Shown: positions 13,446-32,058 of the stretch, in pieces
How positions within the stretch are numbered: the first letter of the stretch is position 1
Layout of the letters: every line of letters begins with the position of its first letter
IMG/VR virus record: IMGVR_UViG_3300042396_000723
Coordinates: 32,001-96,000 of that record
From: a virus
Length of the DNA stretch: 64,000 bases
Strand: one strand, 5' to 3'
Program-made: the position numbers and the translations under genes
Notes under the pieces: generated by a model
Seen by the model: only the letters and a program-made list of their open reading frames with translations
Databases searched by the model: none
Told to the model about the DNA's origin: nothing

Positions 13446-13682
13446 TTACTGATTACGCTCTTTGTACATATCAAAAGGATAAAAGTCGTCATCCGGCATT
13501 TCGGGAAAGAAGCCGTCGCTACCATCGGCAAATAGAATAATTCCCCCTGAGTTGTTGGGGTTCTTGATAAAAATGTCCCCTTCTGGATTTGAGAAATAAT
13601 CCAGACTTAAACTAGATCCACGATCAGATCCGATCTCATAGGCTCTATCTAAATTTTTTCTGTCCATGTTAGTTTTCTCCAA
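13446..13682 (-). CDS. hypothetical protein
   Basis: 78 aa acidic. Confidence 0.3.
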   Translation of the reverse strand: MEKTNMDRKNLDRAYEIGSDRGSSLSLDYFSNPEGDIFIKNPNNSGGIILFADGSDGFFPEMPDDDFYPFDMYKERNQ

Positions 13683-13866
13683 GAATTGAATTAATTAATT
13701 CGTTAAACTCATTCATTGTTCCCTGTGGAATCTGCTTAATAATTGCAGGGATCAAAACATCGTCAATCTCAATACATCGGTCGTTATAGGTTTCGTTGAA
13801 CTCGACAATGAAGTCGCGTTCTTCTATTAATTCGACGAATCTTTCAGCCAACTGCTTAACATCCAT
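13669..13866 (-). CDS. hypothetical protein
   Basis: 65 aa. Confidence 0.3.
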   Translation of the reverse strand: MDVKQLAERFVELIEERDFIVEFNETYNDRCIEIDDVLIPAIIKQIPQGTMNEFNELINSILGEN

Positions 13867-14096
13867 TACGCCACCTCCTCGTGGGATTTGTAATATTTCA
13901 CCGATCCGTTGTCGTAACGATATTCGATCCGATAGACTCGGTTAAATTTATCAGTTTCTTCTTTATTCGGAAATCCTATGATTCCTTCACATCTGAAGGT
14001 GGGATTTTCCCCATTCTCTCCCACCCATTCTTTAAATTCTTGGTAGGTGTCGAAGTTGATGGGTTCGATTCCCAGCGTGATGTAGTTACTGTTCAT
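13866..14096 (-). CDS. hypothetical protein
   Basis: 76 aa. Confidence 0.3.
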   Translation of the reverse strand: MNSNYITLGIEPINFDTYQEFKEWVGENGENPTFRCEGIIGFPNKEETDKFNRVYRIEYRYDNGSVKYYKSHEEVA

Positions 14097-14171
14097 TTTT
14101 TTTGCCTTAAATAATTAATGCTTTGTTGAACCTTTTAGGGACTTGTTCAGGTCTCGGTTGTTCTATGGGTA

Positions 14172-14696
14172 TTAATAGCGGTTTTCCTCCTCAGTCCAAC
14201 TTTGTTCAACTAAGCAATCAACAGCTAACTGAAACGAACTATGGCGGGACGTACTATACTGAAAACCTTTCCCATGCACCAGCATCTCACCGACCGCATA
14301 AAACCAGGATTTGTACTGGACTACGAAACCCAACTTACAACCCGTCTCATAAATAACCGTCCCCTGTTGTTTGGCTAAGGAAACAATCATTTCTTGAGTT
14401 GGTTGATTCGCGTCGATTAATTCCCGTTTTTGGGAACAGATTAGCTCCCAATAGAATGAGAACTGATCCGCACCAATTAGAATTGCGCCACCATCAGCTA
14501 ACACAAATTTCAAGATGTCGTGATTGGTAAAGATACCTGTTATCTGTTCGGGCGTGGGATTGATTTGTCCGAATGTGTCCCAAGCAATGACTTGGGCAGC
14601 GATGGTCTTGTCTAGTGCTAACGCCATGATTTCCCCTGAAATCAGAGGGGCGGGCGCTGTCTGAACTTGACTTGTTTGGACGGTTGTTGCTATCAT
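14172..14696 (-). CDS. hypothetical protein
   Basis: 174 aa. Confidence 0.4.
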   Translation of the reverse strand: MIATTVQTSQVQTAPAPLISGEIMALALDKTIAAQVIAWDTFGQINPTPEQITGIFTNHDILKFVLADGGAILIGADQFSFYWELICSQKRELIDANQPTQEMIVSLAKQQGTVIYETGCKLGFVVQYKSWFYAVGEMLVHGKGFQYSTSRHSSFQLAVDCLVEQSWTEEENRY

Positions 14697-14915
14697 GGTT
14701 TAGTTGGGTTTTGACCCGTAAGGCGGTTGGCACTGATGTTGTAGTCGGGTGCTGACCGCTTTTGGCTTTGTATCTACAATCTTATAGTAATCTGATTACT
14801 ATGTCAAGGGGTTTCGGAAAAATTCTTGTTACTACACAAAAAGAAGTTTAGGTATTGGCGGCAAGGCTTGTACAGAAAGGCATTTAGCTTATGCGGTTGC
14901 AATCGACAATCACTC

Positions 14916-21017: not shown

Positions 21018-21461
21018 ATGAAAACATCAACTAAAGCCAAAACCAAACCCGCTAAAAAAGGATTTCAACCCGCCCCTAAAATTCATGACAATGACTTACA
21101 TATATTTTCTTGTGAGTGCCTTTGGTATGACTCAGAAACCGACGAGGAACTATTGACCGAATTGTGGACAGTCAAACTCGATAAACGACGGTTTCGGACT
21201 GATGTCAGGCAAGCCATTATTACGGGGTTGATCTATTGCTTTCTTGAAACACCGGAAGCAACGGAACGGCATATTAACAGGGTGTTTTTTTGGAATAATA
21301 AATCCCGTGCCTATGAGCCATTAGGGGCGGTGTCTGACGCGCCGATGGACGGATCTAGTCCGGTTGATTTTGAAGCCGATCCGGTGGTGGCTTATGAGCG
21401 ATTAAAAGCCCTTTGTGTCGAGATCGAAGTTATCAAGGTTGACGATTGCTTTTGCTCTTGA
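21018..21461 (+). CDS. hypothetical protein
   Basis: 147 aa. Confidence 0.4.
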   Translation: MKTSTKAKTKPAKKGFQPAPKIHDNDLHIFSCECLWYDSETDEELLTELWTVKLDKRRFRTDVRQAIITGLIYCFLETPEATERHINRVFFWNNKSRAYEPLGAVSDAPMDGSSPVDFEADPVVAYERLKALCVEIEVIKVDDCFCS

Positions 21462-21485
21462 CCTTTTAAAAATACACAAATAAAC

Positions 21486-21514
21486 TTGTTTTTTTTGCGT
21501 TATTTGTGTATAAT
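21486..21514 (+). promoter_or_regulatory. sigma-70-like promoter candidate
   Basis: TTGTTT (21486-21491), 17-bp spacer, TATAAT (21509-21514), preceded by TGTG; followed by about 260 nt of non-coding sequence. Confidence 0.4.
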
Positions 21515-21781
21515 GAAAACAGTCAAGAATCAAGGTTTACCAATGTAGTTTGTTGGTAAATAGTTAACCAGTCTAAGCTCTTTACTGAGCTACGTTATTG
21601 GGAAGTGTTTAAGTTCATACCTTGGGATGCGTTGCCAGTTCCAAGCTCTATAACTAAGTGATTAAACAGATGTACAGCAATTAAGTCAGCAATACTGCTG
21701 ATACCCTCTTAATAAGCAGCGATTTCCCACAAATCCCCATAATCTGTTATAACTGGTGAGTAGTTATATGAGGTTGTTTTT

Positions 21782-21982
21782 ATGGTAAGACCCCACGAAC
21801 ACAGGCAAGAAATCAAAGCCAGACTCAAACCAGAAGATAGGGAGAAGTTGAAAGCCCTCGTCGTTGGCATGGGTTATCGTTATTGGAGGCAGGAGTCACC
21901 GGAACCCGCATGGACTGAGTTTTTGGAGGCGATCGCAACGGGCGATATAATTCTTTACAAAAAAGTCGGGGGAGGGGGTTGA
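21782..21982 (+). CDS. hypothetical protein
   Basis: 66 aa. Confidence 0.3.
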   Translation: MVRPHEHRQEIKARLKPEDREKLKALVVGMGYRYWRQESPEPAWTEFLEAIATGDIILYKKVGGGG

Positions 21983-22043
21983 CCTTTTGGGATAAGTGGG
22001 GTACAGTTATAAATGTAGAAGGTTGAAATAAAGGAACAAGACG

Positions 22044-22274
22044 ATGACCACTCAAACCGAGCCAACTAAAATTTACTGCGACCGGAAATTTTCACTTTAC
22101 GACGTAACACCCTGGACAGCCGCAAGGCTGACGAATTTCTTTAACTTGGTTGACGATGGTGAAGACGTGAAACGTGCCGTCAATGGGTTGAAAACCTGGA
22201 AAGGTAGTCAGTCCTACCGCTTGACAATGAGTGACAAAGCTTCGATTGATTACGTTATTGAATGCTACGGTTAA
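22044..22274 (+). CDS. hypothetical protein
   Basis: 76 aa. Confidence 0.35.
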   Translation: MTTQTEPTKIYCDRKFSLYDVTPWTAARLTNFFNLVDDGEDVKRAVNGLKTWKGSQSYRLTMSDKASIDYVIECYG

Positions 22275-22342
22275 AGATTAATTAACCGAGTAAGGTGGCT
22301 GCCCTACTCGGTTCGAAGTCAATCATTTAAGAGGAGTATACC

Positions 22343-22852
22343 ATGTCAAGCAAAAAACAGGTCAAGCAATCTTTAGAACTGACACTAAGTTTAGCCGAAT
22401 CACTAGGGCCATTAACACGGTCAGAAGCTAAAGAGTTTTTTGGATTATTGGGAGAACTCAATAAAGTTTTCAGTAAAGTAGTTGACCCCGATGCTCACGG
22501 CCTAAAACCCGAACCCAGTCCCGAAGTAGTTAAACACCCCATTGATGCCCTACTCAAAAAAGGAAAGGTCGAACTACCAGAGGGACGCTACAAACAACTG
22601 ATTCAGATTCATGACGAGCTTTTAGTCCTCAAGATTAAATTCTTGAGTGCGAAGCAAAATCAGAATGTCACCTGGTTCCCCCTTGAGTGGAACGGGGATA
22701 AGTCAGCCGCGTTGTACTTGTCATCGTCGGAATGGTCTATAGCTCCCATCAAGTACCGAGATGACAACGATTTGACGGGCGAGTGGGAAGGATTTGATCT
22801 TACTGAGTTCATGAGTATGAACTGCCCAGAGTTTGATCAAGACGAATATTGA
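22343..22852 (+). CDS. hypothetical protein
   Basis: 169 aa; AGGAG upstream. Confidence 0.4.
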   Translation: MSSKKQVKQSLELTLSLAESLGPLTRSEAKEFFGLLGELNKVFSKVVDPDAHGLKPEPSPEVVKHPIDALLKKGKVELPEGRYKQLIQIHDELLVLKIKFLSAKQNQNVTWFPLEWNGDKSAALYLSSSEWSIAPIKYRDDNDLTGEWEGFDLTEFMSMNCPEFDQDEY

Positions 22853-22904
22853 TTTCATGGGAGGTCTTACCCTCCCTCCAAGAAGTAAAGCAGGAGAACA
22901 AATT

Positions 22905-23063
22905 ATGCTATATCGCATCACCCGAATCAAAACCGCACCCGACAGAAAAGACCGTCAAGGGTATTATTTAGAAGCCTTGAATGAGTTAGAGGCTTTGACA
23001 AGATTTCATAACCAATTCCCTGAATTTGTAGGGGAAGAATTAGAGTTAGAGGAATGGAATTAA
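22905..23063 (+). CDS. hypothetical small protein
   Basis: Start moved to ATG 22905 (MLYRIT..., AGGAG upstream) from track start 22833. Confidence 0.3.
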   Translation: MLYRITRIKTAPDRKDRQGYYLEALNELEALTRFHNQFPEFVGEELELEEWN

Positions 23064-23088
23064 AAGACCTCTAATTCAACTTAAAACT

Positions 23089-23118
23089 AACCAGGGGTTT
23101 ATATTCCCTGGTTTTTTG
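23089..23118. terminator. intrinsic terminator between convergent genes
   Basis: Stem ACCAGGG / CCCTGGT with 9-nt loop, followed by TTTTTTG. Confidence 0.6.
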
Positions 23119-23122
23119 CTGT

Positions 23123-23719
23123 TTATCTAATCACAGGGACAGGAATAATCCCCATCAGAATGCCAGATATTTCCTGAAACATTCGCGTAGTTGTTTGCGT
23201 TGCGTCAATTATAATCCAGTTATTTTGCCTAGCCAATTCCAGATATCCGAAGCGAACCCGATCTAAAAAAAGCAAGTCTCGTTCAACCTTGTCCAGAGGT
23301 TTGTCGAGATCGCGGCGCACCGCCACCTCAACAGGACAATCGAACAAAATCACCATATCGGGATCAATTCCCCCCGTCGCCTCGTGATTTAGCTTCCTTA
23401 AATTATCTAAATTAAGCCCGTGCCCATATCCCTGATAGGCAAGTGTTGAATCCGTGTATCGATCACACAATACCAAATCAGAATCTTCTAACAAATATCT
23501 AATCGTGGGATTGTGTTTAATCCTATCCTTCAGGATTAATTTAAGCTGCTGCTCCGGCGTTAAACACCCATTCTTTAATTCAAAACGAACGTCATAATCG
23601 CAGGGTTCTCTTGTGATGTAGAACTTTAACTTTAACGCCGTGAAATGGTCGCAAAGTTTTCTAATTTGGGTTGTTTTCCCACTGCGGTCAATACCTTCAA
23701 AAGCAATCAATTTACTCAT
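23123..23719 (-). CDS. tmk: thymidylate kinase
   Basis: P-loop FEGIDRSGKTTQ and DRY motif CDRYTDSTLAYQG; start placed at ATG 23719 (MSKLIAFEG), overlapping the stop of the upstream small ORF (ATGA). Confidence 0.85.
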   Translation of the reverse strand: MSKLIAFEGIDRSGKTTQIRKLCDHFTALKLKFYITREPCDYDVRFELKNGCLTPEQQLKLILKDRIKHNPTIRYLLEDSDLVLCDRYTDSTLAYQGYGHGLNLDNLRKLNHEATGGIDPDMVILFDCPVEVAVRRDLDKPLDKVERDLLFLDRVRFGYLELARQNNWIIIDATQTTTRMFQEISGILMGIIPVPVIR

Positions 23720-23880
23720 TTCATCCTCATCCAATTTTTAATCAAATCATCTTTAATCATACCTTGCCTTATTAATTCAATTATATATTCTCTAGCTTCC
23801 TCCAGTGTCAATATATCCACATTACGTTTAATTATCGCAAGTTTAAATTCTTGCTCCATTGTTAGCTGTGTTGGTTCCAT
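23716..23880 (-). CDS. nblA: NblA-like phycobilisome degradation protein (not in ORF track)
   Basis: My own translation: MEPTQLTMEQEFKLAIIKRNVDILTLEEAREYIIELIRQGMIKDDLIKNWMRMK (54 aa); matches the NblA pattern L-[ST]-x-EQ-x-F ... RQ-x-M and NblA length. Confidence 0.5.
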   Translation of the reverse strand: MEPTQLTMEQEFKLAIIKRNVDILTLEEAREYIIELIRQGMIKDDLIKNWMRMK

Positions 23881-23974: not shown

Positions 23975-24062
23975 TTACCTGTTGCCAATTGCTCCTGATG
24001 ATGGATTTAATTTGCCAATGCGTATAGTATAGAAATATATAAATACAGCAGGAGATGGCACA

Positions 24063-24272
24063 ATGCGCGACTATATAAACAGAGTCCCCGACTATGGGGA
24101 AAAGAAAAAGCCTCACAATCTGAGTTTGACCGACACGGCGTGGCAACGGCTTGATAAATTAGCTGCGCTCTTGGGAGTGTCCAGGAGTGAGTTCGTCGAA
24201 CGCCTATCCCGTGGAGCGATTGCCCCACAAGACTTACAAGCCTTTTATAAAATTTTTTTAAAAAAAGGTTGA
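24063..24272 (+). CDS. ribbon-helix-helix-like regulator (putative)
   Basis: 69 aa; HNLSLTDTAWQRLDKLAALLGVSRSEFVERLSRG resembles RHH strand-helix-helix; AGGAG upstream. Confidence 0.45.
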   Translation: MRDYINRVPDYGEKKKPHNLSLTDTAWQRLDKLAALLGVSRSEFVERLSRGAIAPQDLQAFYKIFLKKG

Positions 24273-24296
24273 CAATTTCTAAAGTATGCGTATATT
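24269..24296 (+). promoter_or_regulatory. sigma-70-like promoter candidate
   Basis: TTGACA (24269-24274), 16-bp spacer, TATATT (24291-24296), about 30 nt upstream of ATG 24328. Confidence 0.45.
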
Positions 24297-24327
24297 ATAG
24301 AATTTGTAAACGCACAGAGGTAACGCC

Positions 24328-25131
24328 ATGACAACCGCAACCACAGCAAAAACCAAAACCGCAGCAAAAACTAAAACCCCTGAGTGGAAATGGAATAATA
24401 ATCTGGGGTGTGATGCCCTAAAACTCCCTACAAAGGGATGTCACGTTGACAACAGAGGAAACGTCTGGAAAGACGGCGACTCCATTGGTAACGTCACCCC
24501 GTTGCCAAATTCAGTTAAGGTGACACCCCTAGAATGGGTTGTCACCCACGAACAAAAACAGGAAGCCGTTTCCTGCGAAAAGCTACACGGGAGCTACAAA
24601 AAAAACGCGACTCCTGCCCGTCGTAAAGAATCCCCCGATGGGATGCGGGGAGGCAATTCTCAGTGGGGAGAAGTCTCTGGCCCTAAAGCCCATTTTGTGG
24701 CTGATGAGTACGAGGTGATTGTCACCTACACGGCAACTAAAGCCGTCAATCAATTCAGGGAAATTATTGAGGGAAAACCCAAGTTTCCTTCCCCCACTAC
24801 CATTGCCTATGAAACGGGCTATGGGAAAGAAACGGAATATACCGTGACCGAGTTGGCCGTCTTAGACTTGCCTACCGAAAAAGTGGAGAAGGTCTACACA
24901 GACCAACGAAAACACCTCTATGGAGAGGCAATCAAGGTTGTCAAAGAATACCTTGACAATTTAGATAAACCCGTTGAAGGGCTGTTAAAGGTCGGTGACA
25001 GCGTGATTCACCCTGTATATGGACAGGGAACTGTCACAAAGGCTTTCGGGACTAAAAACCCCACCTACCAGTCCGTTTGCGCGGATTTCCCCTGCGGGAA
25101 CAAGATGGTAGGAAAATGTGACCTGATATGA
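24328..25131 (+). CDS. hypothetical protein
   Basis: 267 aa; Thr/Ala/Lys-rich N-terminus. Confidence 0.4.
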   Translation: MTTATTAKTKTAAKTKTPEWKWNNNLGCDALKLPTKGCHVDNRGNVWKDGDSIGNVTPLPNSVKVTPLEWVVTHEQKQEAVSCEKLHGSYKKNATPARRKESPDGMRGGNSQWGEVSGPKAHFVADEYEVIVTYTATKAVNQFREIIEGKPKFPSPTTIAYETGYGKETEYTVTELAVLDLPTEKVEKVYTDQRKHLYGEAIKVVKEYLDNLDKPVEGLLKVGDSVIHPVYGQGTVTKAFGTKNPTYQSVCADFPCGNKMVGKCDLI

Positions 25132-25187
25132 CCTTTTCACTATGATTACCCCACGGAAGCCACAGCTAAAAACAGAGAGGAAAAACA

Positions 25188-25685
25188 ATGACAACTTTCA
25201 CAAAACCAGAAAACCTTTTTGATTCAGTTGATTTTCAAGGATTTGTCGTCGGAGAAGACGACGCGGTAACAACAGTATTGTATCGGGGTCAAGTCCCCGA
25301 TTTTAAGCGGAATAAAAAACAGGTCGTAAAGTTTGACTTCGACCTTCACTGCCTAACGGCAAAACACTGGTTTCTAGCTATAGAGCTATCTACTTCTGAC
25401 CTTTTGTTTAAGGAGGTAGAAAGTTGTCCTGTTGAACTTCCCAATGAGTTCAAGGATTCAGTTGTCCTGCACCCTGTAAACGGGAAAGTGGGCGTTTGGG
25501 TTGCGCCGATGTCACCCACTGATGTTTCGGGTTGGCAAAAAGCTATGGAAACTACAGCGACAGAGGTAAAAGCCTCTGGTAGTGTGAAGTTTCGAGGGCT
25601 TCACAACCTGTTCAACAGGCTATCCCGCGTTACCCCCAAAACAGGGGTTGTTGGGGGTGCTAAATTCCCGACATGGAGAGACTAA
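25188..25685 (+). CDS. hypothetical protein
   Basis: 165 aa. Confidence 0.4.
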   Translation: MTTFTKPENLFDSVDFQGFVVGEDDAVTTVLYRGQVPDFKRNKKQVVKFDFDLHCLTAKHWFLAIELSTSDLLFKEVESCPVELPNEFKDSVVLHPVNGKVGVWVAPMSPTDVSGWQKAMETTATEVKASGSVKFRGLHNLFNRLSRVTPKTGVVGGAKFPTWRD

Positions 25686-25712
25686 AAGTAGCGATCTCAG
25701 GTTAGCTCCTAG

Positions 25713-25737
25713 CACGGTTCGATTCCGTGCGGTCGCA
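25713..25737 (+). other. tRNA 3'-end-like fragment (T-arm plus acceptor strand)
   Basis: CACGG-TTCGATT-CCGTG stem-loop with canonical T-loop, then CGGTCGC-A; I could not find a matching 5' acceptor strand, D-arm or anticodon arm upstream. Confidence 0.35.
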
Positions 25738-25774
25738 TTCCCGAAAGGGATTATTAACTACATAGGCTAAAGCA

Positions 25775-26056
25775 ATGAAGAAACATCAAATCAATGAGCA
25801 ACTTAGTAAGTTATTGAAACTTACTAACTGCTCTAACCTAGAGGTAACGGTTGACAACAACACCAGGGATTGTATGACCGTCTGGAAGCTATGGGGTAAA
25901 GGTGGGCAAATTGCCCAAGCCGAAGCACGGTTTGGATCGGAATATTCTGATCAACCCGATGGTTTTGCCTTCTATTTAGAAGGCTACAACTGGACAGATT
26001 ACTGTCCTACAGTTCAAGATTGTGCCAGCCAACACAAGGAGCGCGCTCTTGTCTAA
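25775..26056 (+). CDS. hypothetical protein
   Basis: 93 aa. Confidence 0.35.
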   Translation: MKKHQINEQLSKLLKLTNCSNLEVTVDNNTRDCMTVWKLWGKGGQIAQAEARFGSEYSDQPDGFAFYLEGYNWTDYCPTVQDCASQHKERALV

Positions 26057-26233: not shown

Positions 26234-26614
26234 ATGGAAATCATTAACGCTACACCCCATCAAATCGTTATCTGTAGCAACCAAGGGGTTGTCCAAGATG
26301 CAAAGACTAAGCAATTCACAGCTTCGGCTGTTGAGATCCTCCACACCCTGCCACCATCGGGAATCATCCCCCGCGTGGCGATGGGGAATACCGAATCCGA
26401 ACCCATTTTAGGTATTCCAGTCCAAAGCGTTCAATATGGCGAGATTGAGGGACTCCCCCCTGCGTCTCCCGATGTTTATTATGTAGTGTCGGGACTGGTA
26501 GCAGCAGCCGCCGTTAAAGTGAACAGGGCTGATTGCCTGGCTCCGGGTGCGCTAGTCCGCAATTCTGCCAACCCATCAGAGGTGTTAGGCTGTCTTTTTT
26601 TGCAAAAGCCCTGA
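26234..26614 (+). CDS. hypothetical protein
   Basis: 126 aa. Confidence 0.4.
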   Translation: MEIINATPHQIVICSNQGVVQDAKTKQFTASAVEILHTLPPSGIIPRVAMGNTESEPILGIPVQSVQYGEIEGLPPASPDVYYVVSGLVAAAAVKVNRADCLAPGALVRNSANPSEVLGCLFLQKP

Positions 26615-26721
26615 TTGGCGACGGTTGCCCCCGGTGTGGTAGTCATAGGCTGGTTAGATATGGTTACACCGAACACGGTCGCCGCCGAATGAAATGCAAG
26701 GATTGTAATAAATTATTTTAA
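26533..26721 (+). CDS. zinc-ribbon peptide resembling a transposase N-terminal Zn finger (possible relic)
   Basis: C-terminal 31 aa CPRCGSHRLVRYGYTEHGRRRMKCKDCNKLF fits the CPxCG...CKxC ribbon seen at N-termini of some IS transposases; N-terminal part overlaps previous ORF and may not be coding. Confidence 0.3.
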   Translation: MPGSGCASPQFCQPIRGVRLSFFAKALIGDGCPRCGSHRLVRYGYTEHGRRRMKCKDCNKLF

Positions 26722-26725
26722 AATC

Positions 26726-26758
26726 AACCCTCTAAATATTTAGAGGGTTCTTTTTTTG
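26726..26758. terminator. strong intrinsic terminator (bidirectional candidate)
   Basis: Perfect 24-nt palindrome AACCCTCTAAATATTTAGAGGGTT followed by CTTTTTTTG; between convergent genes. Confidence 0.7.
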
Positions 26759-29934: not shown

Positions 29935-32058
29935 TTATGCCGTGTAAATTATTGTTATTTTAACTGGTTTTGATAAAATATTTTCGCTATTTGTTGGATG
30001 ATTTATTATTTGTATGTCCGCCACTGACACGGACACGGAAAAATGAAGACCAACAAACTGTGTATCATATCCAGACAATACAAACGCGTTTGCGCTGAAT
30101 TCCACTAATACTGTGACGGATACAATTTTTGAAACCGTAACTCCATGAGCTATTAATGCAACCCCCCCTTCAGTTGCAGCCGTAGTCCCCGTCAAAACTT
30201 TAATCTTAATCCCTGGATGATTAGCGTCCCCACCTAAAGAACTGAAACCACCAACATATTGATTTCCTCCAATCCCCTGTCCCCCAGGAATTACACTAGC
30301 TCCCGTGGTGGGAGATGTTGAAGGTGTTGTGGAATTAGTTGATATCACACCTCTTAGGTAGGTATTGGTGATACTTGAATCACCAATTGTTACGGTGTTT
30401 GAGCCGTTACCGGTGGCGTTAAAACAAAATACGTTTTCGTTGGTTGCGTTCTGGGTTCCTTTTGTATTTGCGCCAAAAAAACAAGAGTTATTTGAGATAG
30501 TTAGACCTGTAACGCCGTCAGAAGTGAAGCGTCCTGCACCAACTCCAAAACCTGCCAAATTACTCCCTGTTATATTGCTGAAAAGCGCACCAACTCCAGA
30601 GGCAGTTAAATTATTCCCTGTAGTGTTATTTTCTAAAGCCCCAACGCCAAAAGCAGACGAATTATTCCCTGTAGTATTAGAACGAAGCGCATTAAGTCCA
30701 GCGGCAGTTAAACTACTCCCTGTAATATTGGACAAAAGCGCACTAACTCCAACTGCCGTTGAATAATTCCCTGTGGTGTTATTTTGTAAAGCCCCAGTTC
30801 CAAAACCTGCCAGGCCAATACCTGTGGTATTGGCCTGGAGCACACTAACTCCTGTTATTGTATTTGTGTCTAAACTCCCCCCTCCTCTCCCAATAGGAAT
30901 CAAATTATAAGAATTGGCACTAACAGTACCAGCAAAAATAGCACCCGTAACCCCTAAACTAGCGACCCTTAAAGCCCCTGTAGTTGTTGATGTTGATTGG
31001 GTTGATAGGGGAATATGAAATCTCGAACTATCAACAGAGAAATAAGTAGTCGCACCATCTCCCCAGGATTGAATCCCTGTCGATATATCTCTCTCCCACC
31101 ACGTTCTAGTGGTACTCAGGGGAATGTTAAAGGAAGCATCAACAGCTATCCCGTTATGAAAACTGGTTGTATTCCAGTCTACACCATTAGCTTTCCGACA
31201 AAGCCAAGTTCTTTCTGTTATTATGTTTCCTGATGCCCCTGTTTTTGAAGATAAAACTTGAAAATCTCCAGATGTACTACCGAGAGGAGACCCTTGATAT
31301 AGACTAACTCCTGCACCTAAAGAACCTATTATGTTTCCGTTTACTGCTAGATTCCCCGTGATAGTCCCACCCGCCAATGAAAGATAGGAATTAATATCAA
31401 TTGAATAAGTCCCATCCCCTGTTTTCTTTAGGAATCCTGGGGTGTCGGATAGCGATTGAATAGCAATTAATTCGTTGCCGATACTGTTAGTTGAAACCGC
31501 AGTTACTTGACCCTTAGCATTGACAGTAATAGCAGGAATTGAACTAGCACTACCGAAAGAACCAGCATTACTATTGACCGTTGCCAGTGTTATCGCACTT
31601 GTAACATTGGCTGAACCATCAAAAGATACTGAATAACTAGCATCCCCCGTTGTTGTAATTGTCCGTGGCGTGGTTAGTTTTAAAGCCTCTCCCGCAGTAG
31701 CAGAACTCGATATCTCAACATAAACAGAACCCGACCATCGGTAAACTTTATTAGTCGTTTCATCAACGTAAATCTTTCCAGTTTCACCCGTACCTGGGAA
31801 CCCGGCAAGGTTTGTATAACTCAGGACATCATCAACATAAGACGGTAAAAGCCCAGATGAAATTGTGCCAGACGCGGCGTTTAAACTTGTTAAAACTTCG
31901 TTACCAGTAGACGCGATCGCACCAACATCAGACGCGGTTAAACTAATCTGAGCTTTAGGAACCTTGGTATTTGAATCCAAGGTAGCCACACCATTAGCCA
32001 TTGCTTTCTCTAATTGCAAAACAATCAAAGAATAATCAATATCCGAAAACATTCCCAT
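29935..32058 (-). CDS. tail fibre protein
   Basis: 707 aa; GKIYVDETTNKVYRWSGSVYV and SIPAITVNAKGQVTAVS phage-fibre repeat motifs; many NTTG/NITG Gly-rich repeats. Confidence 0.8.
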   Translation of the reverse strand: MGMFSDIDYSLIVLQLEKAMANGVATLDSNTKVPKAQISLTASDVGAIASTGNEVLTSLNAASGTISSGLLPSYVDDVLSYTNLAGFPGTGETGKIYVDETTNKVYRWSGSVYVEISSSATAGEALKLTTPRTITTTGDASYSVSFDGSANVTSAITLATVNSNAGSFGSASSIPAITVNAKGQVTAVSTNSIGNELIAIQSLSDTPGFLKKTGDGTYSIDINSYLSLAGGTITGNLAVNGNIIGSLGAGVSLYQGSPLGSTSGDFQVLSSKTGASGNIITERTWLCRKANGVDWNTTSFHNGIAVDASFNIPLSTTRTWWERDISTGIQSWGDGATTYFSVDSSRFHIPLSTQSTSTTTGALRVASLGVTGAIFAGTVSANSYNLIPIGRGGGSLDTNTITGVSVLQANTTGIGLAGFGTGALQNNTTGNYSTAVGVSALLSNITGSSLTAAGLNALRSNTTGNNSSAFGVGALENNTTGNNLTASGVGALFSNITGSNLAGFGVGAGRFTSDGVTGLTISNNSCFFGANTKGTQNATNENVFCFNATGNGSNTVTIGDSSITNTYLRGVISTNSTTPSTSPTTGASVIPGGQGIGGNQYVGGFSSLGGDANHPGIKIKVLTGTTAATEGGVALIAHGVTVSKIVSVTVLVEFSANAFVLSGYDTQFVGLHFSVSVSVADIQIINHPTNSENILSKPVKITIIYTA

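Follow-up and report, generated by a model that had tools for sequence, protein, structure and literature searches.

A repeated acceptor-stem and T-arm element in PaV-LD-like cyanophages, very probably a structured RNA and a candidate mRNA processing signal

Background

Plant mitochondria and vertebrate long non-coding RNAs have tRNA-like processing signals, and phages have tRNAs that are cotranscribed with open reading frames (ORFs). We describe here a tRNA-like element in the DNA of a virus, the IMG/VR record IMGVR_UViG_3300042396_000723, of which a stretch of 64,000 nucleotides was analysed (positions 32,001 to 96,000 of the record, hereafter the window). The element occupies 25691–25737 of the + strand and consists of an acceptor stem and a T-arm only, 47 nt in all. 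An initial annotation, made from the letters of the sequence, had taken it for the 3’ half of a tRNA, possibly the core of a phage attachment site (attP) or a tRNA relic. By nucleotide similarity the window is a relative of the Planktothrix phage PaV-LD: 214–12354 matches PaV-LD 83587–94284 at 81%, and two pieces within 24001–25752 match PaV-LD 13669–14865 at 87%.

By analogy, the closest functional precedent for the element is the t-elements of plant mitochondria. These are tRNA-like sequences with no cloverleaf, found by means of the motif GGTTCRANYCC; RNase P and RNase Z cleave them, and their ends coincide with the ends of mRNAs (PMC1920247; PMC3790967). It is the stack of acceptor and T-domain helices that RNase Z faces, and the remaining tRNA is largely dispensable (PMC3790967). 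Like the phage element, t-elements have a perfectly conserved T-arm and an acceptor stem, are set in mRNA precursors beside coding regions, and have no encoded CCA (PMC1920247; PMC3790967). The RNA released from them receives a non-templated C or CA, and their cleavage is an experimental result, whereas that of the phage element is one that we infer. Unlike the phage element, t-elements are organellar, usually longer (about 70 nt), share no sequence homology with it, and are not repeated at cassette boundaries.

Several other systems are similar in part. The mascRNA of MALAT1 and its MEN-beta counterpart are small tRNA-like modules of acceptor stem and T-arm with no decoding function, and where the upstream RNA ends is set by the excision of mascRNA, for which RNase P and RNase Z are responsible. 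It is, however, a nuclear RNA of vertebrates, and a triple helix, for which the phage has no equivalent, protects the RNA upstream of it. In animal mitochondria and in the tRNA clusters of T4-like phages, tRNA-shaped units stand between coding regions, which RNase P and RNase Z separate at these units, but the units are functional decoding tRNAs, while the phage element has no anticodon arm. The tRNA-like domain of transfer-messenger RNA (tmRNA) has an acceptor stem, a stem-less D-loop analogue with GG, and a T-arm, as does the element, which lacks the tag ORF, the pseudoknots and the conserved G3.U70 of tmRNA.

Two viral systems resemble the element in location or in sequence type. The PeSL cassettes of T4-type phages lie in a hyperplastic region, where these short and conserved intergenic modules recur between small ORFs and form the junctions of insertions, deletions and replacements (PMC2839356; PMC4122927). 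The element is also a repeated intergenic module with junctions (27 combinations of flanks), but a PeSL is an early promoter with a terminator stem-loop, whereas the element has a tRNA-mimic core and no promoter consensus. The attP of the halovirus HF2 is a low-scoring, non-canonical tRNA-like sequence in a virus that encodes an integrase, as PaV-LD does; it agrees with the last 57 nt of host tRNA genes, adjoins the integrase and is single-copy (PMC8707807). None of these three is true of the element.

Structure of the element

The element is very probably a conserved, structured RNA that mimics part of a tRNA, and not an attP. It begins 5 nt past the TAA (25683–25685) of a gene for 165 amino acids (25188–25685), and so its position directly after a coding sequence is as initially annotated; this gene and all features in this section are on the + strand. 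In the minimum free energy (MFE) fold, the 5’ acceptor strand GCGATC (25691–25696) pairs with the 3’ acceptor strand GGTCGC (25731–25736). The acceptor and T stems are separated by a linker of just 15 nt (25697–25711, TCAGGTTAGCTCCTA), which has a GG at 25700–25701 and may form a mini-hairpin of 3 bp with a 6-nt loop (AGG at 25699–25701 with CCT at 25708–25710) that is absent from some copies. A T stem of 6 bp, predicted by RNAalifold and by covariation, is formed by GCACGG (25712–25717) and CCGTGC (25725–25730). It encloses the loop TTCGATT (25718–25724), which has the canonical T54-Psi55-C56-R57-A58 pattern. There is an A in the discriminator position (25737) and no encoded CCA after it. A separate trailer hairpin, UCCC-GAAA-GGGA (25739–25750), begins 1 nt past the discriminator, followed by a short leader (25751–25774) up to the ATG of the next gene, which encodes 93 amino acids (25775–26056). 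In other copies this leader is A/C-rich, ends in a Shine-Dalgarno sequence (AACAACACAAAGGAG..ATG), and is repeated along with the element.

The initial annotation had pointed out the canonical T-arm CACGG-TTCGATT-CCGTG (25713–25729), the acceptor-like CGGTCGC (25730–25736) and A25737, all of which are present. It had also reported that the D-arm, the anticodon arm and the 5’ acceptor strand were missing; the two arms are indeed absent, but the 5’ strand is there, in GCGATC. The 17-nt T-arm occurs once in the window, compared to 0.02 occurrences expected from shuffled sequences. The MFE fold of 25680–25760, with acceptor stem, mini-hairpin, T-arm and trailer hairpin, has a free energy of -25.7 kcal/mol (z = -2.6), and the trimmed element unit has z = -3.0.

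Covariation and the 12-bp stack

The helices are retained across related phages. With a hand-specified structure and 13 distinct sequences, 96.7% of cells were paired, compared to 30–48% with slid partners. In a larger alignment, A3 (25 distinct sequences), 97.2% of cells were paired, compared to 33–48% when slid, 14 of the 19 pairs had changes on both sides, and none of 500 shuffles reached any observed measure, though A3 was fitted to a covariance model, which favours structure. RNAalifold independently predicts the fold, with 6-bp acceptor and T stems; it prefers this division because the pair at the junction covaries between G-C and A-U (6 and 8 of 14 sequences). The outer T-stem pair in A3 is G-C in 16 sequences and A-U in the other 9, and inner T-stem pairs covary too (A-U/U-A, C-G/G-C). 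Across copies, pair 5:68 is U-A, C-G or U.G, and pair 3:70 is G-C, G.U or A-U.

The strongest single result concerns this stack. The distance from the T-loop to the discriminator is 12 nt in all 16 variants compared, and a continuous 12-bp stack of acceptor and T stems is possible in every one of them but PaV-LD copy e1. The stack is split 6/6 in the window, while 6/6, 7/5 and 8/4 are interchangeable in most PaV-LD types. In the phage contig L061, copy c2 has a 6/6 split made of unrelated stems (AGCGGA/TCCGTT and GCAGGG/CCCTGC), and copy c3 a 5/7 split (GCCTA/TAGGC and TGCCCCG/CGGGGCA). Six divergent variants each fold alone into the same architecture (MFE, z = -2.5 to -3.5). Across copies there are 9 G.U pairs and 1 A.C, and therefore the selected strand is the mRNA-sense (+) strand.

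The T-loop of intact copies is TTCGATT or TTCGACT, and the discriminator in the variants compared is A, except for a C in L079 and L189. A GG is found 3–4 nt past the acceptor strand in every variant, including two that have no mini-hairpin (L020 e1 and L061 c3). Like G18G19 in a tRNA, this GG might dock on the T-loop.

Distribution and copy number

Pattern scans of IMG/VR found the unit in roughly 28 contigs, and scans of metagenomes in 17 more, for a total of ~45 PaV-LD-like contigs. All carriers are PaV-LD-like except L061, a diverged phage contig rich in the HIP1 palindrome. A scan with GGTCGCATTCCCNNNNGGGA gave 13 extra loci, which were chance coding matches; a scan with CGCAGGTTAGCNCCT gave chiefly chance matches and revealed second copies. 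Among 50,697 phage records in GenBank, the element is in PaV-LD alone, and neither the GenBank nor the RefSeq record of PaV-LD has an annotation at it. The orthologous unit in PaV-LD is directly after ORF024R, with a T stem (CTGGG/CCCAG) that has two compensatory changes relative to the window.

R1, a covariance model based on 14 variants, found one match in the window, at 25688–25753 (89.2 bits, the next best being 12.1 bits). In the whole PaV-LD genome it found three matches within 770 nt, after ORF024R, 025R and 026R only. Genomes have one to three copies, each at the end of a small ORF: there are two in each of L045, L048, L020, L032, L037, L188, L204, L205 and L207, and three in L061 and L197. 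The end of the 165-amino-acid ORF also precedes the element in L012, L016, L025, L031, L039, L041, L043, L045 and others. In PaV-LD types the stop codon is 0–13 nt upstream of the element. In L061 it is within it: two copies (118–197 and 1239–1306, - strand) have the TAA of the upstream ORF within the linker, in the 7-nt loop of a central hairpin (CAUAAAG, CUAAAGA), in the position of an anticodon loop, and in the third (1589–1648) the ORF runs through the T-arm to a stop in the 3’ acceptor strand.

A T-arm-like site at 14060–14074 of the window (UGGGUUCGAUUCCCA) was rejected as a second element – it is a bare stem-loop (12.1 bits, E = 0.42) with no acceptor-like flanks. Its perfect 15-mer (TGGGTTCGATTCCCA) is identical to the T-arm of PaV-LD types and appears inside a short minus-strand ORF; the resemblance is probably due to chance. 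Two IMG/VR contigs, L004 (around 1263–1284) and L052, have a 25-nt tRNA 3’ end (CTGGGTTCGATTCCCAGTGGTCGCA) that equals the T-arm and acceptor strand of PaV-LD types. This locus is in an AT-rich phage contig, with no 5’ acceptor strand visible within 70 nt and a negative ARAGORN result; one possibility is a split or intron-containing tRNA, another an att-type fragment.

A scan of 2.1 Mb for the architecture gave 64 matches, and the reversed sequence gave 1. Beyond the loci already known, two matches checked with ARAGORN were inside real tRNAs, and the rest appeared by eye to be tRNA 3’ halves, with one exception. This is a sequence-unrelated unit of the same architecture in L219 (5154–5200, - strand), a marine T4-like cyanomyovirus, 5 nt past the stop codon of a small ORF. 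Its stems are split 6/6 (GGGGGT/ACCCTC and GGTGAG/CTCACC), its loop is TTCGATC, and it is followed by A, TT and an abutting 7-bp hairpin. Its 15-nt linker contains GG and resembles the D-loop region of tmRNA. ARAGORN was negative, no GenBank homolog was found, and the copies in IMG/VR (L242, L243) are identical ones only. The L219 unit hints that the class is broader than the PaV-LD-like phages.

Trailer hairpin and genuine tRNA genes

The trailer hairpin is also found at tRNA genes. A scan of IMG/VR for T-loops of any kind with TTCCCGNAAGGGA 13 nt further on returned ~30 contigs beyond those of the element, with full-length tRNA-Ala(UGC), tRNA-Arg(UCU), tRNA-Ile(GAU) and tRNA-Gly(UCC) genes and the hairpin at the same spacing. 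In contigs L211–L240, of marine cyanomyoviruses in IMG/VR, CCC-GNAA-GGG is 2 nt past the discriminator of real tRNA genes, in the motif TT-CCC-GNAA-GGG-A. BLAST identified the two hairpin-tRNA contigs that were checked as T4-like myoviruses of marine Synechococcus; cultured relatives have annotations for the matched tRNAs. The phage S-RSM4 (L241 1880–1975 and 818–940) has a tRNA-Ala and a tRNA-Leu with different hairpins that start directly after the discriminator. The trailer hairpins of L061 are CCC-GCAA-GGG and CCCC-TCGT-GGGG.

Because this trailer is common to the element and to genuine cyanophage tRNA genes, it argues for descent of the element from a tRNA gene and for tRNA-like handling. 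A hairpin directly next to the discriminator seems to be a general and undescribed feature of the 3’ trailers of cyanophage tRNA genes, and suggests a shared, undescribed 3’-processing signal. Where a copy is the last one ahead of a terminator (L205 e2, L204 e2, L197 e2), it lacks both the hairpin and the A/C-rich Shine-Dalgarno leader, and so this part of the module belongs to the downstream gene. In L205 a terminator like the one in the window directly follows the last copy.

The initial annotation's suggestion of a tRNA relic is borne out insofar as the element is tRNA-like and probably tRNA-derived, given its T-loop, 12-bp stack, discriminator A and the trailer hairpin of genuine tRNA genes. 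Some secondary copies are clearly decaying, but an inert relic is unlikely for the intact copies, since their helices have been kept by compensatory changes.

Probable recombination at the copies

The flanks of the copies fall into 15 upstream and 23 downstream classes, which occur in 27 combinations. The end of ORF024 is joined to five different downstream genes, and the window resembles L045 minus the gene between its two copies. The copies would be joints at which homologous recombination exchanges cassettes of small genes, presumably as a by-product of a repeated module of ~60–90 bp.

The cyanobacterial HIP1 palindrome, GCGATCGC, is found at 23 sites in the window (1215, 3985, 10326 and 62182, for example), compared to 0.32 expected. 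It is strongly over-represented in PaV-LD and L061 too, with densities of 0.36–0.56 per kb when the window is included, and absent from the three marine cyanomyovirus loci examined. In many copies of the element both acceptor arms are HIP1 or one mismatch off.

A possible mRNA processing signal

The element is in the middle of a putative operon, because the + strand gene run around it spans, in sequence scans, from a promoter-like site to a terminator-like hairpin. The promoter-like site (24269–24296, +) is TTGACA-16-TATATT, with 11 of 12 matches to the consensus by pattern matching only, and the hairpin with a T-run (26726–26749, +) resembles an intrinsic terminator. Folds and covariation give the element an acceptor stem and a conserved T-arm with no decoding arm next to a coding region, as in t-elements and mascRNA, with the transcript setting taken from sequence scans only. 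The conserved 12-bp stack, T-loop and discriminator and the lack of a CCA are features used by the enzymes that process tRNA ends, and a processing signal is therefore proposed. We put the chances at about even that the element is a t-element-like punctuation signal for RNase P and RNase Z within the operon.

Most cyanobacterial tRNA genes have no encoded CCA, cyanobacterial RNase P is independent of CCA, and bacterial mRNAs are stabilised by 5’-terminal hairpins. Under the processing model, the element would be transcribed as part of a polycistronic + strand RNA. The host enzymes would treat the element like a pre-tRNA that lacks CCA, with RNase P cutting just before G25691 and RNase Z just after A25737. 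The two cuts would split the polycistronic RNA and release a mini-tRNA-like RNA of ~47 nt. The downstream mRNA would then start 1 nt ahead of the GNRA hairpin at 25739–25750, which may protect the new 5’ end and would be followed by the short leader and the start codon.

A number of points weigh against processing, or against the strength of the structural case. Each enzymatic step is one that we infer. A cut by RNase P would leave the 3’ end of the upstream mRNA unprotected, a few nucleotides past its stop codon, and in L061, where the stop is inside the element, translation termination and folding of the element would compete. PaV-LD e1 has an A.C at pair 1:72, which interrupts the stack. 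The family is phylogenetically narrow, and the covarying cells reduce to a handful of independent events; because HIP1 is over-represented in the window, part of the complementarity of the acceptor arms could also come free. PaV-LD e2 (L209 15093–15172) has an inverted T-loop, AGTCGAA instead of TTCGACT, and has lost the hairpin. PaV-LD e3 (L209 15541–15568) is an exact deletion product between HIP1-like arms, AGCGATCGC and then the trailer hairpin – a copy collapsed to one HIP1 and a hairpin. L035 e2 is truncated, with a junction inside the element. Since several secondary copies are decaying in this way, individual copies must be dispensable.

Known RNA families and rejected identities

ARAGORN found no tRNA or tmRNA gene in the window, so it did not bear out the possibility of a complete tRNA here, and it found none in PaV-LD, L020, L032, L045, L061 or L192. 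An Rfam scan of the element gave nothing at gathering thresholds. The element has the 12-bp acceptor and T helix, the 7-nt T-loop and the discriminator of a canonical tRNA (RF00005); it has no cloverleaf, and this identity was rejected. In the permissive scan, the top score in the tRNA clan was for cyano_tmRNA (RF01851), with 11.6 bits against a threshold of 70 bits. A tmRNA was rejected on this score, on the ARAGORN result, on the lack of a tag ORF and pseudoknots, and on the occurrence of G3.U70 in one variant only. Membership in mascRNA-menRNA (RF01684; 15.8 against 42.5 bits) and RAGATH-36 (RF03104; 18.6 against 70 bits) was rejected as well, with scores far under the thresholds; in the 128-position RAGATH-36 model only the first T-arm-like hairpin aligns.

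An identity for decoding or aminoacylation was rejected, as the linker has a mini-hairpin of 3 bp with a 6-nt loop that is deleted in some copies, and there is no conserved identity pair. Scans for a promoter or terminator within 25686–25774 found neither, and the trailer stem is only 4 bp, with no T-run. For an integron attC, the sequence GTTAGCT at 25701–25707 fails at the RRR positions of GTTRRRY, and an integrase homologous to that of PaV-LD is missing from the window. The element is not described in the PaV-LD papers or in the main text of a survey of viral structured RNAs.

Alternative explanations

Two of the alternatives place the function of the element in DNA. An attP, in which a tyrosine integrase uses the copied 3’ half of a host tRNA gene, would be consistent with the tyrosine integrase genes about 3.3 kb upstream in PaV-LD, L059 and L020, and a low-scoring tRNA-like gene has a precedent as attP in HF2 (PMC8707807). 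The initial annotation had held that this idea would fall if no host tRNA had a matching 3’ end. A scan of one genome for each of 185,579 species for the 25-mer of T-arm and 3’ acceptor strand (CWSGGTTCGATTCCSWGYGGTCGCA), in a pattern that covers both first-copy sequence types and leaves the second-copy type CACGGTTCGACTCCGTGCGATCGCA (GACTCC...GATCGC) outside, gave a single match, to a tRNA-Lys of Planctomycetota, and none in cyanobacteria. The annotation had also noted the lack of an integrase, which agrees with a tblastn search with the PaV-LD integrase that found no homolog in the 64 kb of the window, where the element is kept nonetheless. Given the lack of the 25-mer in the cyanobacterial genomes scanned and of an integrase homolog in the window, and the presence of up to three copies in related genomes, attP was rejected. 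An attP would also not need the covarying 5’ acceptor strand, and phage genes are found on both sides of the element in all contigs; we regard this explanation as very improbable. A tRNA pseudogene fragment rich in HIP1 palindromes, kept for cassette recombination and with no function as RNA, is less far-fetched, though still unlikely. It would account for the 15 by 23 classes of flanks in 27 combinations, for the HIP1 excess, for the e3 deletion between HIP1 arms, for the flipped T-loop of e2 as a DNA inversion at the stem, and for the junction within L035 e2. Recombination needs identity and not pairing, however, whereas the stems have compensatory double changes and G.U pairs on one strand (9 to 1 A.C), and the L061 copies share the architecture with almost no identity of stem sequence.

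The other two alternatives accept a functional RNA and differ on what it does. The excised mini-tRNA-like RNA might itself be the product. Once CCA-tailed it would act in trans, and could, as a decoy or sponge, occupy enzymes or defence toxins directed at the acceptor and T domains; the operon would be no more than its route of expression. The same structural evidence that favours processing would favour this; in addition, the T-loop and the linker GG are better conserved than a simple cleavage signal may require, and L045 e1 has G3.U70 together with A73. There are no conserved identity elements to go with it – neither pair 3:70 (G-C, G.U or A-U) nor the discriminator (A or C) is constant – no tRNA-related gene is nearby according to Pfam and PHROGs searches of the neighbours, and the linker is deleted in type C copies. 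We think this unlikely, if the least so of the four. The element might instead be a structured intercistronic RNA that blocks exonucleases or modulates translation and is not cut by tRNA enzymes, with a tRNA likeness inherited from an ancestral phage tRNA gene. Its place in mid-operon, abutting stop codons, its stable folds of around -25 kcal/mol, and the descent suggested by the trailer of real tRNA genes are all consistent with such a barrier. A generic barrier, however, needs neither a 12-bp stack with a shifting split nor a canonical 7-nt T-loop, which are what tRNA enzymes measure, and we rate it slightly below the pseudogene fragment in probability.

Genomic setting

The products of the genes on either side of the element (165 and 93 amino acids) have no match in Pfam or PHROGs. 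For the neighbouring proteins in general these searches were uninformative save for a ribbon-helix-helix (RHH) regulator, a Rha-like anti-repressor and a zinc ribbon of the IS1595/InsA type. The last is encoded by an ORF of 62 amino acids (26533–26721, + strand) with sub-threshold Pfam matches to the transposase zinc ribbon (23.4 and 19.6 bits). This ORF overlaps the end of an ORF of 126 amino acids and is shortly ahead of the operon terminator. Upstream, 23123–23880 (- strand) and 21018–23100 encode a homolog of NblA, which is involved in phycobilisome degradation, and a thymidylate kinase, syntenic with ORF021L and ORF022L of PaV-LD. In the position of the integrase/PAPS-reductase block of PaV-LD (ORF018R–020R), the window has three small ORFs and no integrase homolog.

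Conclusions

A minimal mimic of acceptor stem and T-arm, repeated at the boundaries of phage gene cassettes, outside Rfam and missed by tRNA finders, appears to be undescribed in the literature searched. The element is invisible to ARAGORN and Rfam, while the covariance model R1 finds it cleanly and could be used for annotation. In its broadest and most speculative form, for which we see little likelihood, cyanophages would have a mitochondrion-like punctuation in which minimal tRNA mimics with a standard trailer hairpin, copied from place to place among small accessory genes, guide host RNase P and RNase Z in cutting operon RNA, act as the joints at which the genes are shuffled, and release CCA-tailed, trans-acting mini-tRNAs, such as decoys for host defences directed at acceptor stems.

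If the processing model is true, the element would be, as far as the literature was searched, the first phage counterpart of t-elements and mascRNA – a tRNA pared down to the recognition features of RNase P and RNase Z, with the punctuation of mRNA as its task. It would also show how a defined joint lets small accessory genes be exchanged, and would offer a testable handle on the maturation of polycistronic RNA in cyanophages associated with freshwater blooms.

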